Shown piece after piece: positions 1 through 21,952 of a DNA stretch of 64,000 nt (the first letter of the stretch is position 1; every line of letters starts with the position of its first letter). This stretch comes from Longimicrobiales bacterium. Its GTDB lineage: Bacteria > Gemmatimonadota > Gemmatimonadetes > Longimicrobiales > Gaopeijiaceae. Below the pieces are notes generated by a model. The model was not told the origin of the DNA. It saw nothing but the letters and a program-made list of their open reading frames with translations, and made no database searches. The translations under genes were made by a program, and so were the position numbers. The stretch lies in contig OZ242008.1 of assembly GCA_965204735.1 (NCBI GenBank), forward strand, positions 2,080,001-2,144,000, written 5' to 3'.

Positions 1-2448
1 GACTGGCCGCGGGTCCTGATCGCCCCGACTGGATCGGGCAAGACCGCCGCCGTGACGCTCGGGTGGGCGGCACACCGCTTGAATCGGCCCGCCGAAACAC
101 CGCGACGGCTCATCTGGTGCCTTCCGATGCGCACGCTGGTCGAACAAACGGCCGAGAAGGTCAGGGACTGGTTCGACAAGCTGGCCGAAATTGACGAGGC
201 GAGGCAGCTGCCGAGGCCCGCGGAGGTCCATGTGCTCATGGGCGGGACCACCTCCGCCGACTGGCTGGAGGCACCAGAACGGCCCGCCGTGGTCGTGGGC
301 ACCCAGGACATGTTGCTGAGCCGTGCGCTGATGCGCGGTTATGCGTCGTCCAGGGCGCTTTGGCCGATGGAGTTCGCACTGCTCCACGAGGATGCCCAGT
401 GGGTTTTCGACGAAGTCCAGCTGATGGGGGCCGGCCGGGCGACTTCCGCCCAGCTTGAGGCCTTCCGCAGAAGCGAAACGGCTCGGGGGGAGAAGCCTAG
501 CATCGGTCGCGGCCGGCCTTCCCGCAGCCTCTGGCTCTCTGCGACGCTTGATCCCAGTTGGCTGGCCACCGTCGATCATCCCGCGCCGCCGGCAACGTCG
601 GTGTGCACGGTTGACCCAAGAACTACCCGAGACGACAGGCTCGCACGGCTGGCGCGCGCCACCAAGAGGCTGCACCGCTCACCAGTGGCACCTGCGTCCT
701 CGAAGAAGACCAATATCGACAACTACGTTCGTGAACTCGCCGATGCGGTTCTCCGGGGACGTCGGTTGGGGTCAATGACACTGGCCATCGTCAACCGAGT
801 GGACCGGGCCCAGGAGCTCTATCGGGCACTTGACACGCAGACCGCGAAGCTGGGACAGTTGGCACCGACGCTGGTCCTAATTCATTCGCGGTTTCGCCCG
901 GCAGACCGCCAGCGCGAGATGGATAAGATCAAAACGGACACGAACGAAGCTGGGCAGATCGTCGTTGCCACGCAGGCGGTGGAGGCCGGAGTCGACATCT
1001 CTGCCGCCGCATTGTTCACCGAAATCGCGCCGTGGTCTTCAATGATTCAGCGTTTTGGTCGCACCAACCGCTATGCGGAGGTGCCTGACGGAGCGGACGT
1101 TCATTGGATTGACCTGCTTGGTGCCGTGGACGACGGCGTAGCGTCGGACAAGGAAGCTGAGAAGTTGGCGTTGCCCTACTCCGTCGACGAGCTTCGATTG
1201 GGGCGCGAGCACCTTGCCAAGTTGACGGATGTGGCTTCCGTACATCTCGTCGCGCCGGACAGTCCCGAGCCACCGCGCCGAGTCATTCGACGCAAAGACC
1301 TTGACGATCTCTTCGACACCGATCCGGACCTGACGGGCTTCGACGTCGACATCTCGCCCTACGTACGCGACGCGGACGACACCGACATTCGCGTGTTTTG
1401 GCGCGATCTCCCCGTCGAAGGAACCGAACCGCCACGTCCAACGAGGGAAGAGATATGCGCCGTGTCTATACGGTCTGCCGCGACGTGGCTCCAGAAGGTT
1501 CACAAGCATGCCAACGGCCGGGTCTTCCGACGGGACCCGCAGGCGACGCAAGGACGAGGATCGGAAACCACCCCACCAGGATGGATGGTGTTTCGCGAGA
1601 AGCCTTGGCCGGGGCTGGTGCTGCTTGCAGATCGGAGTGCTGGCGGCTACTCGGCAATGACTGGCTTCACGGGCAATCCGAAGGACGTCCCGAATCCGGT
1701 CGTGGAGCCGGCCGACTCCTCTTCCCCAGCTCCTACCGAGACGGAGGGGCATGACGAGGACCAACTGAGCCAGATCAACGCGGTGGTTTCCCTCGCCGAC
1801 CATCTCGGGCACGTTGTGCAAGAAGCGGAAGGGCTTTGCGATGCGCTCGACGTCGACCATGGCTTGCGGGCCATGGTCAACCGCGCCGCCCGCTGGCACG
1901 ACCTCGGTAAGGCCCACGAGGTCTTCCAGGACACCATGCGTCGCGGTCTTGGCGACCGTGACGTTCCTGAAGCACTGCTCGCCAAGACCGTCGGACACGC
2001 CCGCCACAGCCGCCCGTACTTTCGCCACGAACTCGCTTCTGCCCTGGCGTTCCTTGGCCACGAGAGATGGTCGAGGGACGCCGACCTAATCGCCTACTTG
2101 ATCGCTGCCCACCACGGCAAGGTACGGATGAACCTCCGGGCACTGCCCCTCGAACGGGCACCAGACGGCGACCGTGCCGGAGCACGCTTCGCCAGAGGCA
2201 TCTGGGCGGATGACGAACTGCCTCAGTTTGACTTGGACGACAACGAGCGCTGGCCAGGAGGGCCGCTCCACTTGTCGATCATGGAAATCGGCTGGAACGA
2301 AATCACGCGCGAGAGCTGGACGGAGCGCACCCACGAACTGCTGTCCCGAATCGGGCCCTTCCGCTTAGCTTGGATGGAGACCCTCCTGCGGGTCGCCGAC
2401 TGGCGCGCATCCAAGAAGGAACGAGAAGGGGGCTACGATGCACAGTGA
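1..2448 (+). CDS. cas3: Type I-G Cas3 helicase-nuclease (module 1), 5'-partial
   Basis: Frame is open from base 1 (DWPRVLIAPTGSGKT, Walker A). Also has FDEVQL motif II, SAT motif III, IHSRF, VATQAVEAGVD, QRFGRTNR motif VI and a C-terminal HD domain (WHDLGK...RHE...AAHHG). A C-terminal HD domain is typical of I-G Cas3. Confidence 0.95.
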   Translation, partial: DWPRVLIAPTGSGKTAAVTLGWAAHRLNRPAETPRRLIWCLPMRTLVEQTAEKVRDWFDKLAEIDEARQLPRPAEVHVLMGGTTSADWLEAPERPAVVVGTQDMLLSRALMRGYASSRALWPMEFALLHEDAQWVFDEVQLMGAGRATSAQLEAFRRSETARGEKPSIGRGRPSRSLWLSATLDPSWLATVDHPAPPATSVCTVDPRTTRDDRLARLARATKRLHRSPVAPASSKKTNIDNYVRELADAVLRGRRLGSMTLAIVNRVDRAQELYRALDTQTAKLGQLAPTLVLIHSRFRPADRQREMDKIKTDTNEAGQIVVATQAVEAGVDISAAALFTEIAPWSSMIQRFGRTNRYAEVPDGADVHWIDLLGAVDDGVASDKEAEKLALPYSVDELRLGREHLAKLTDVASVHLVAPDSPEPPRRVIRRKDLDDLFDTDPDLTGFDVDISPYVRDADDTDIRVFWRDLPVEGTEPPRPTREEICAVSIRSAATWLQKVHKHANGRVFRRDPQATQGRGSETTPPGWMVFREKPWPGLVLLADRSAGGYSAMTGFTGNPKDVPNPVVEPADSSSPAPTETEGHDEDQLSQINAVVSLADHLGHVVQEAEGLCDALDVDHGLRAMVNRAARWHDLGKAHEVFQDTMRRGLGDRDVPEALLAKTVGHARHSRPYFRHELASALAFLGHERWSRDADLIAYLIAAHHGKVRMNLRALPLERAPDGDRAGARFARGIWADDELPQFDLDDNERWPGGPLHLSIMEIGWNEITRESWTERTHELLSRIGPFRLAWMETLLRVADWRASKKEREGGYDAQ

Positions 2449-21952: not shown

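Follow-up and report, generated by a model that had tools for sequence, protein, structure and literature searches.

Can one CRISPR array supply guides to two structurally different effector complexes of the same subtype? The question is raised by a type I-G locus at the start of a 64,000-nucleotide stretch of Longimicrobiales bacterium DNA (GenBank GCA_965204735.1, contig OZ242008.1), hereafter the window, which is C1:2080001-2144000 of a closed, single-contig genome of 4.14 Mb that is 98% complete. In this locus two effector modules, module A (cas3-csx17(Cas8g1)-cas7-csb2) and module B (cas7-csb2-cas3-csb3), precede one set of adaptation genes and one array. The best explanation, with a probability put slightly above even, is that two I-G Cascades would be loaded with CRISPR RNAs (crRNAs) from that array and give overlapping, redundant DNA interference. 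Every part of the locus is an already known I-G variant, with no new protein family or chemistry. Genomes are referred to by G numbers (G000 being this genome), loci by L numbers and runs of other studies as X3, X5 and X9; the stretch is present in runs labelled sponge or marine metagenome.

Two effector modules and a single type I-G array

Open reading frames (ORFs) and profile searches identify two complete type I-G effector sets in the window, both on the forward strand, with a cas4/cas1 fusion gene (cas4/1), cas2, a leader, an array of 39 repeats and an IS3 element downstream of module B. All eight effector genes, cas4/1 and cas2 pass NCBIfam cut-offs at the positions below, and both modules score above the cut-offs of TIGR02165 (Csb2) and TIGR02570 (Cas7g/Csb1). 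This profile typing bears out the earlier note on this DNA, made from the letters alone, in its reading of two full I-G modules (cas3-csx17-csb1-csb2 and csb1-csb2-cas3-csb3). The hallmarks of type I-G are all present, namely the Csb2 Cas5-Cas6 fusion, Cas7g, Cas3g with a C-terminal HD domain, the Cas4/Cas1 fusion, Cas2 and a hairpin repeat; the usual single effector module per locus is replaced here by two complete ones.

1..2448, + strand: cas3g of module A, 842 aa, a helicase whose HD domain is C-terminal, start mapped upstream (TIGR02621, 674 bits)
2438..4786, + strand: cas8g1/csx17, large subunit, 782 aa (TIGR04113, 624 bits; PDB 8B2X chain M, E 6e-156)
4776..5732, + strand: cas7g/csb1 of module A, 318 aa (TIGR02570, 126 bits; PDB 8ANE Cas7, E 7e-143)
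5737..7413, + strand: csb2 of module A, a Cas5/Cas6 fusion of 558 aa read from a GTG (TIGR02165, 157 bits)
10144..11394, + strand: cas7g/csb1 of module B, 416 aa (PF09617, 170 bits; TIGR02570, 69 bits)
11405..13126, + strand: csb2 of module B, 573 aa (TIGR02165, 291 bits)
13116..15884, + strand: cas3g of module B, 922 aa, 7/7 tested motifs present (TIGR02621, 746 bits)
15884..16846, + strand: csb3-type predicted small Cas8 subunit, 320 aa from the second of two adjacent ATGs (NF049934, 273 bits)
16912..18621, + strand: cas4/cas1 fusion, first ATG at 16990 (543 aa) (NF049935, 764 bits)
18627..18920, + strand: cas2, 97 aa (PF09827, TIGR01573)
18921..19138, + strand: leader, sharing conserved blocks with G055, G096 and G124, a TTGACA box among them
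19139..21952, + strand: type I-G array, 39 repeats, 38 of them exact over the 36-nt core, with 36 regular spacers of 33-42 nt

The large Cas8g1 subunit and the order cas3-cas8g-cas7-csb2 place module A in the Cas8g1/Csx17 variant. Its cas3 begins at an ATG 81 nt before base 1 (genome C1:2079920) and the protein carries Walker A, DEVQ, SAT, QRFGR, HD, RHE and HHG motifs; the HD domain covers residues 581-787 of Cas3-A and 733-917 of Cas3-B in the TIGR02621 search. Csb2-A keeps a His of the Gly-rich loop that 80% or more of 28 A-type proteins share. Its conserved C-terminal His is a candidate counterpart of H503, the catalytic His in the Csb2 of Thioalkalivibrio sulfidiphilus.

Module B has the order cas7-csb2-cas3-csb3 and a small Cas8-like subunit and so belongs to the Csb3 variant. 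Csb2-B keeps a His about 20 residues ahead of the Gly-rich loop, a residue shared by 80% or more of 102 B-side proteins, and this His of the B class appears to fit the position of Bifidobacterium H520 as described in the available text of bioRxiv 10.1101/2022.08.19.504415. Among solved structures none matches Cas7-B by sequence. The structural model of Csb3 (mean predicted confidence, pLDDT, 87) aligns with residues 9-387 of Cas8g1 in 8B2X over 266 positions (Z 16.8, root-mean-square deviation 4.8; Foldseek E 1.2e-6) and also resembles Cascade chains of types I-A and I-B. Because the predicted fold is like the N-terminal part of Cas8g1, Csb3 is, on the model, a small Cas8 that lacks the C-terminal part of Cas8g1. 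A non-Cas passenger at this position was rejected on account of the predicted Cas8 fold.

The two modules are far apart in sequence. BLAST finds about 29-30% identity between Cas3-A and Cas3-B, in two local segments, and about 28-30% between the Csb2 proteins, with no significant match between the two Cas7 proteins or between the two large subunits. The dissimilarity that the earlier note had seen between the Cas7 proteins (318 vs 416 aa) is therefore real, as is that between the large subunits, of which 782 aa was right for the larger, but the smaller has 320 aa and not 321. The paralogues are deeply diverged, at no more than 30% identity. Module B as a recent duplicate of module A was rejected.

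One array stands against these two modules. The whole genome holds two Cas7g, two Csb2 and two Cas1 loci, one I-G and one I-E, and a genome-wide scan leaves two CRISPR arrays among 24 periodic-repeat candidates. A second I-G array or a second I-G Cas1 was found nowhere in the genome by the repeat scan and profile counts, so that the single cas4/1-cas2 and single array noted earlier hold for type I-G genome-wide. Module A has no I-G array of its own, since the sole one is that after cas4/1-cas2. Its 36-nt repeat forms a 7-bp hairpin followed by a 12-nt tail, CCTCATTGAAGC, and ends in ATTGAAGC as type I-G membership requires; outside the array the tail has one stray copy genome-wide. The two leader-proximal units (19139-19237) are irregular, their spacers being about 23 and about 5 nt long and ATT being absent from the repeat between these, unlike the arrays of G055, G096 and G124, which begin with normal units.

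The start of cas4/1 is itself unusual. By comparison of starts, conserved coding begins 26 codons before the ATG at 16990, at a GTA codon. In 16907-16990, G000, G055 and G096 have GTA and most close relatives shown have ATG or GTG, and the GTA is overlapped by a mini-ORF, ATG-GGG-TAA. These features suggest a non-standard start or a -1 slip in this clade, with low Cas4/1 output.

An array with a different repeat, which the earlier note had named as a possible owner of module A, does exist upstream of the window, but it belongs to type I-E with its own Cas6e, Cas1e and Cas2e. The full I-E operon and array occupy L001:6857-19600 (genome C1:2066857-2079600) in the order cas3-cse1-cse2-cas7e-cas5e-cas6e-cas1e-cas2e by profiles, cse2 being presumed from an open frame at that position; Cas6e scores 44.7 against a cut-off of 45.2 and Cas3 falls under its equivalog cut-off. 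The array has 57 copies of a 28-29-nt repeat and ends about 350 bp before cas3-A. Ownership of this array by module A was rejected because of the complete I-E operon and because the A+B relatives G055 and G096 have no such array.

The physical linkage of the modules is supported from outside this assembly. In four other studies, one run each, contigs reach every one of the 30 bins of 1-19130. The long pieces that lie over the two modules are equal in depth within X3 (10.5-13.9) and within X5 (49-57), and one contig extends from a relic of cas4/1 between the modules, described below, into cas7-B. The 138-bp repeat that this relic forms with cas4/1 interrupts the short-read contigs at either copy, and no contig spans the whole locus. 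The same gene order is found in G055, of the same genus, and in G096, of another genus, with about 80 bp between csb2-A and cas7-B. A mis-assembly or chimera was rejected on the independent contigs and the shared layout. Contigs of three other studies carry strain variants of both modules, in which indels are mostly in-frame or compensated.

Recurrence, selection and probable crRNA compatibility

The earlier note had proposed looking for the tandem in relatives, and it is found there. Eleven other dual loci were identified across three phyla, nine of them A+B (G055, G096, G515, G377, G326, G1629, G1609, G1599 and G516) and two combining module B with a Cas8g2 module (G511 and G187). Ten of the 11 have one cas4/1-cas2-array; the contig of the other, G516, ends before any cas1. 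Among the best 80 of at least 535 Cas7-B relatives, module A lies directly upstream in four and a Cas8g2 module downstream in one. The duals occur in three gene orders: the tandem as here, module A followed by cas3-csb3-cas7-csb2 (G377, G326), and a convergent arrangement (G1629, G1609, G1599). Trees were made for Cas7, Cas3, Csb3 and Cas4/1 from subsets that leave aside most Acidimicrobiia, distant loci and three Vicinamibacterales loci; on every gene G000, G055 and G096 form one clade, and G515, G516, G377/G326, G511 and G187 fall elsewhere. Given these separate places in the trees, the dual layout appears to have arisen several times. The Cas4/1 proteins of single-A and single-B loci are intermixed. 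A metagenome scan with a single Csb2-A gave two loci only, both single-A, and a viral scan with a Cas7-B alignment gave one locus. G658 is an ordinary case, with two I-G systems, each accompanied by a separate cas4/1 and array; in G385 neither an array nor a cas1 occurs in the 60 kb around an A module.

Several relatives show further variation. In G187 (L133:12442-20000, L134:1-18000) Csb3-type and Cas8g2-type modules are interleaved, with a Cmr/Csx11 type III module and a DEAH helicase, and the interleaved modules and the type III module all precede one cas4/1-cas2-array. At L130:3681-6101 (G377) and L132:1884-4292 (G326) the B-type Csb2 is about 805 aa long, about 250 aa over the usual length, and has two stretches that match Cas5/6; a Csb2 of 733 aa occurs at L153:4177-6375. 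A separate deep-branching I-G lineage is seen at L034:10562-17457 (G096) and L040:9792-16363 (G124), with arrays ending in AACTGAAGC and no cas1 within 20 kb.

Both modules appear to be maintained. Among dual pairs (G000/G055/G096 and G377/G326) the ratio of nonsynonymous to synonymous substitution rates (dN/dS) falls at 0.13-0.42 in the A genes and at 0.08-0.36 in the B genes, values that are rough, having been taken from stop-to-stop frames at high GC content. Judged by these ratios, both modules are under purifying selection. The csx17 of G096 (L033:3979-6372) is 58-63% identical to its G000 and G055 orthologues, the neighbouring genes being 77-91% identical, which suggests that in G096 the large subunit alone has been exchanged.

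The repeat format appears to be compatible with either module. The exact 12-nt tail occurs in 10/12 single-A and 13/47 single-B loci, most others being 1-2 nt off, and hairpin sequences vary freely. A B-type Csb2 is the sole Csb2 in five of eight B genomes tested, three of these five having the exact tail, and the single-A relative G124 has near-identical 36-nt repeats. In G055, G096, G377, G326 and G515 genome-wide counts of the tail pattern are explained by the adjacent array. Since each module type occurs alone with this repeat format, sharing of crRNAs is mechanically plausible. An additional stand-alone Csb2 or Cas6-like half lies near the cas4/1-array block at L080:16614-17474, L061 near 16734, L138:8543-9349 and L074:3197-4660, and is possibly the retained processing enzyme of the array's former owner.

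No protospacer adjacent motif (PAM) could be read from the spacer searches. The 1,787 spacers of 64 arrays gave no convincing protospacer in the genome and fetched loci, this array matched 314 family genomes mostly through repeats, phage and plasmid collections gave chance or repeat matches only, and two spacer scans and one integrase scan of viral contigs were blank. Four of eight candidate regions match spacer 20690-20727 with 4-7 mismatches, in tyrosine-integrase genes at four loci in three family genomes, and this spacer points to an integrative element as target. All four are flanked 5' by CTC, which on the opposite strand reads as a Glu codon with a synonymous position, so that TTC is possible in the true target; they count as one observation and cannot separate the PAM options. 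The earlier note had allowed for two PAM specificities, a suggestion that is disfavoured here. With one PAM-selecting Cas4/1 writing the array, and the Cas4/1 proteins of single-A and single-B loci mixed in the tree, overlapping PAMs would be the simpler reading.

Relics between the modules and neighbouring elements

The modules are not adjacent. The earlier note had called both uninterrupted, and each set is indeed complete, but 2.7 kb of DNA lies between them, and it holds relics that bear on how the tandem arose.

7413..7550, + strand: cas4/1 relic, 138 bp, 97.8% identical (3 differences) to 17414-17551, direct repeat
7567..8139, + strand: multicopy-gene fragments, short ORF pieces with 70-84% DNA identity to several genomic places
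8139..9284, + strand: IrrE/ImmA-family metallopeptidase, 381 aa, putative antitoxin or regulator (PF06114), 89% identical in G128
9285..9794, + strand: DUF4411 protein, 169 aa (PF14367, 147 bits), paired with the IrrE/ImmA-family gene
9861..10018, + strand: relic of the 3' end of dinB, 159 bp, 90.6% identical to C1:2065497-2065654, the intact DinB-family gene being PF12867
21957..23168, + strand: IS3-family transposase at the end of the array trailer (NF033516, 368 bits)

The 138-bp relic copies an internal segment of cas4/1 and is only 81-85% identical to the cas4/1 of relatives. Module A may recently have stood before a nearly identical cas4/1. The block at 7567..8139, presumably pieces of an AAA-ATPase although no profile matches, has a counterpart of 89-90% identity in G128, immediately upstream of the dinB neighbourhood there, and the DUF4411 protein we take to be a PIN-like toxin. 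The intact DinB-family gene precedes the whole CRISPR island here, and in G055 dinB is followed by cas3-A, with the same flanks beyond the array. Between G000 and G055 synonymous divergence (dS) is 0.5-0.7 for the A genes and cas4/1 and 1.2-2.2 for the B genes, and from this excess the B allele of this strain was not simply co-inherited. The relics suggest the joining of two alleles of one hotspot: I-G effector modules would be exchangeable cassettes at a recombination hotspot beside the DinB-family gene, and in this strain an allele with A then cas4/1 would have been joined by recombination with an allele with dinB, then B, then cas4/1. The I-E system may have been added in front of the joined alleles.

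The neighbourhood of the DinB-family gene hosts differing CRISPR-Cas cassettes among family members (L044:16641-18598 in G048, L030:17643-19999 in G055, and L213 in G128), and in G048 cas7, too, is preceded by a duplicated piece of dinB. Module B lies between the two copies of the 138-bp direct repeat, and recombination across the repeat would remove about 10 kb including module B and the Cas4 nuclease part of the fusion. In run X9 one contig links 7414 to 17172, which suggests a longer relic or another junction in that strain.

The I-E operon sits between the DinB-family gene and cas3-A, is absent at that site in G055 and G096, and, taken together with the I-G modules A and B, forms an island of 35 kb in which there are three Cas3 genes. 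At L001:19360-19480 the trailer of its array is broken by about 130 bp with a repeated AAAATTGCACACTT motif, which we take to be an IS21-family end. Beyond the I-G array the arrays of G055 and G096 likewise have IS3 at the trailer end, and after the IS3 of the window (23172-23448) lie pieces of another multicopy element that are 88-95% identical to at least 12 genomic sites. Farther off, 51270-63998 on the - strand is an ORF of at least 4242 aa built of repeats of about 126 and about 101 aa, probably a surface adhesin. No terminase was found in the genome.

Competing explanations, precedents and meaning

Two Cascades fed by one array would work as follows. Cas4/1-Cas2 would write spacers with a single, probably TTN-like, PAM, each Csb2 would cut the pre-crRNA and stay on the 3' hairpin, and each crRNA would end either in a Cas8g1 Cascade with Cas3-A or in a Csb3 Cascade with Cas3-B. 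As the complexes share no more than 30% identity, what beats one of them, be it an inhibitor or an escape mutation, need not beat the other, so that the pair may be a hedge against anti-CRISPRs. The earlier note's idea of one crRNA pool for two Cascades has good support on genomic grounds (one array, the repeat format, selection and recurrence), as a probable arrangement.

Several observations weigh against this explanation. Single modules are the rule: clustered Cas7g pairs occur in 2/20 other positive family genomes, 3/34 other I-G-positive Gemmatimonadota and 3/35 Vicinamibacterales, with none in 50 Myxococcota, 18 Actinomycetota or 18 other Gammaproteobacteria, one of which, the unpublished G695, is used for this count alone, in surveys where many assemblies are fragmented. 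Damaged duals exist, with cas3-A split in G1609 and csb3 apparently shortened in G377; in the strain of run X5, csx17 carries one inserted nucleotide, possibly a frameshift; and relics of displaced modules in L057, L067 and G382 indicate that outright replacement also occurs. The extra Csb2 or Cas6-like half in some B loci (G382, L061, L074, L080) implies that compatibility may not be universal and that an incoming Csb2 may not always suffice. A scan of the 3 kb upstream of module B gave no match to a sigma-70 promoter, against 0.5 expected. Published PAMs also differ, being TTN in Geobacter, where it is chosen by the Cas4/1 (PMC6547450), and TAT/TAC in Bifidobacterium (PMC9335239, PMC12915315), as far as the available text of these sources goes.

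The main rival holds that both modules are kept but only one interferes, the other being weakly expressed or specialised in priming, regulation or extra crRNA processing. It has the lack of a promoter match before module B and the extra Csb2 halves in its favour, together with an intact-looking I-B operon of Clostridioides difficile that, in the available text of PMC10732046, did not interfere. Set against it are the intact helicase and HD motifs of both Cas3 proteins, the similar dN/dS of the two modules and the gap of about 80 bp from csb2-A to cas7-B in G055 and G096, across which one transcript could cover all genes, and overall it is judged unlikely, though to be taken seriously. Still less probable is a transient tandem, caught midway through in-situ effector replacement at the hotspot and of no benefit in itself, with selection reflecting the earlier single life of the modules. 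The fresh relics (cas4/1 at 97.8%, dinB at 90.6%), the higher dS of a B allele not simply co-inherited, the relics in L057, L067 and G382 and the damaged duals G1609 and G377 would all fit it; G055 and G096, however, keep a seamless A+B with dS of 0.15-0.31 in most genes and dN/dS of 0.13-0.42, strain variants elsewhere are mostly in-frame or compensated, and the deletion route through the 138-bp direct repeat has not been taken in this genome.

The idea that each Cascade has a PAM of its own, such as TTN for one and TAN for the other, so that the pair would widen the targets or catch PAM-escape mutants, is rated a shade lower again. The published differences among variants, the different large subunits and the csx17 of G096 (58% identical against 77-85% for its neighbours), suggesting exchange of a PAM reader, speak for it, but one Cas4/1 writes the array, the Geobacter fusion selects its PAM (PMC6547450, available text) and close B-type modules use Cas4/1 of the same clades as A-type modules. 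It is very improbable, and largely refuted, that module A is served by the upstream array of 29-nt repeats or that the modules were joined by mis-assembly. The end of the I-E array so close to cas3-A, the lack of a spanning contig and the breaks at the 138-bp repeats would allow it; the I-E operon has Cas6e, Cas1e and Cas2e of its own, G055 and G096 have no such array, the single-A G124 has near-identical 36-nt repeats, and the contigs of four studies cover the 30 bins, with equal depth in X3 and X5 and a contig from the relic into cas7-B.

Module A is like the I-G system of T. sulfidiphilus (8ANE, 8B2X; PMC9638904) in its four genes, their order, its close Cas7 and Cas8g1 and the same 12-nt tail; unlike that locus, which from the available text has one effector module, the locus here has a Csb3-type module between csb2 and cas4/1. 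The T. sulfidiphilus Csb2 is described as cutting 4 nt after the hairpin, leaving an 8-nt handle and staying on the hairpin, and the order cas7-csb2-cas3-csb3 is given in the legend of Fig. S9 of the same source (PMC9638904). Module B resembles the Csb3 variant of Bifidobacterium animalis (PMC9335239, bioRxiv 10.1101/2022.08.19.504415) in a small Cas8-fold subunit and a conserved His near the Csb2 C-terminus, a likeness of description and not of compared sequences; in the available text that module comes with an array and adaptation genes that serve it alone, and its PAM is TAT/TAC. Sorangium cellulosum So ceGT47 has two I-G arrangements in one genome (PMC11237760), and Salinispora has I-U_csx17 and I-U_csb3, with a Csx17 variant without cas1 (PMC4223832). 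With these the locus has in common both variants in one genome or genus, a -TTGAAGC repeat tail and Csx17 modules without cas1, but the available text of both sources gives no adjacency, array sharing or test, unlike the clustered layout here. The novelty claimed in the earlier note was thus overstated, since both variants per genome and the Csx17 module without cas1 are already published (PMC11237760, PMC4223832). No description of adjacent I-G variants on one array was found in the literature searched, which covered few subscription journals; bioRxiv supplements, the extended data of PMC12669027 and, for PMC11237760, Fig. 2A, Fig. S4 and the data sets lay outside it and could show one.

The two I-B operons of C. 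difficile (PMC10732046, PMC8406132) are a close parallel, being same-subtype duplicate effectors with one adaptation module and common arrays, and in the available text the duplicate sets are linked directly to an anti-CRISPR (PMC10732046). Unlike the locus here, where structurally different variants are clustered, the C. difficile operons lie at separate loci and one interferes. The 'I-G' of Pyrococcus furiosus is Cst, reportedly now classed as I-B, and a stand-alone Cas6 is said to serve its complexes. There the Csa, Cst and Cmr complexes, two of them type I, are described as loading crRNAs from the same arrays (PMC4436667). They are of different subtypes; here the two are of the same subtype, each module having its own Csb2.

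Beyond this locus, a broader reading would make the three I-G variants plug-compatible effector cartridges on one crRNA format (a hairpin of 7-8 bp, CCUC and AUUGAAGC), repeatedly stacked in pairs on one memory because structurally unrelated Cascades and Cas3s differ in anti-CRISPR sensitivity or in tolerance of PAM and seed escape. This is tentative and stands some way below even. If true, it would be a recurrent, selected hedge within a subtype, a natural system in which to seek the first I-G anti-CRISPRs and a test case for the division of one crRNA pool among several Cascades. No type I subtype has been studied less than I-G, whose variants have so far been examined singly. The locus makes it testable whether the two accept the same crRNA, whether their PAMs overlap and whether the pair is an anti-CRISPR hedge or, as in C. 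difficile, an idle duplicate, and with relics 91-98% identical to their sources it offers a clear, dated example of in-situ effector shuffling.

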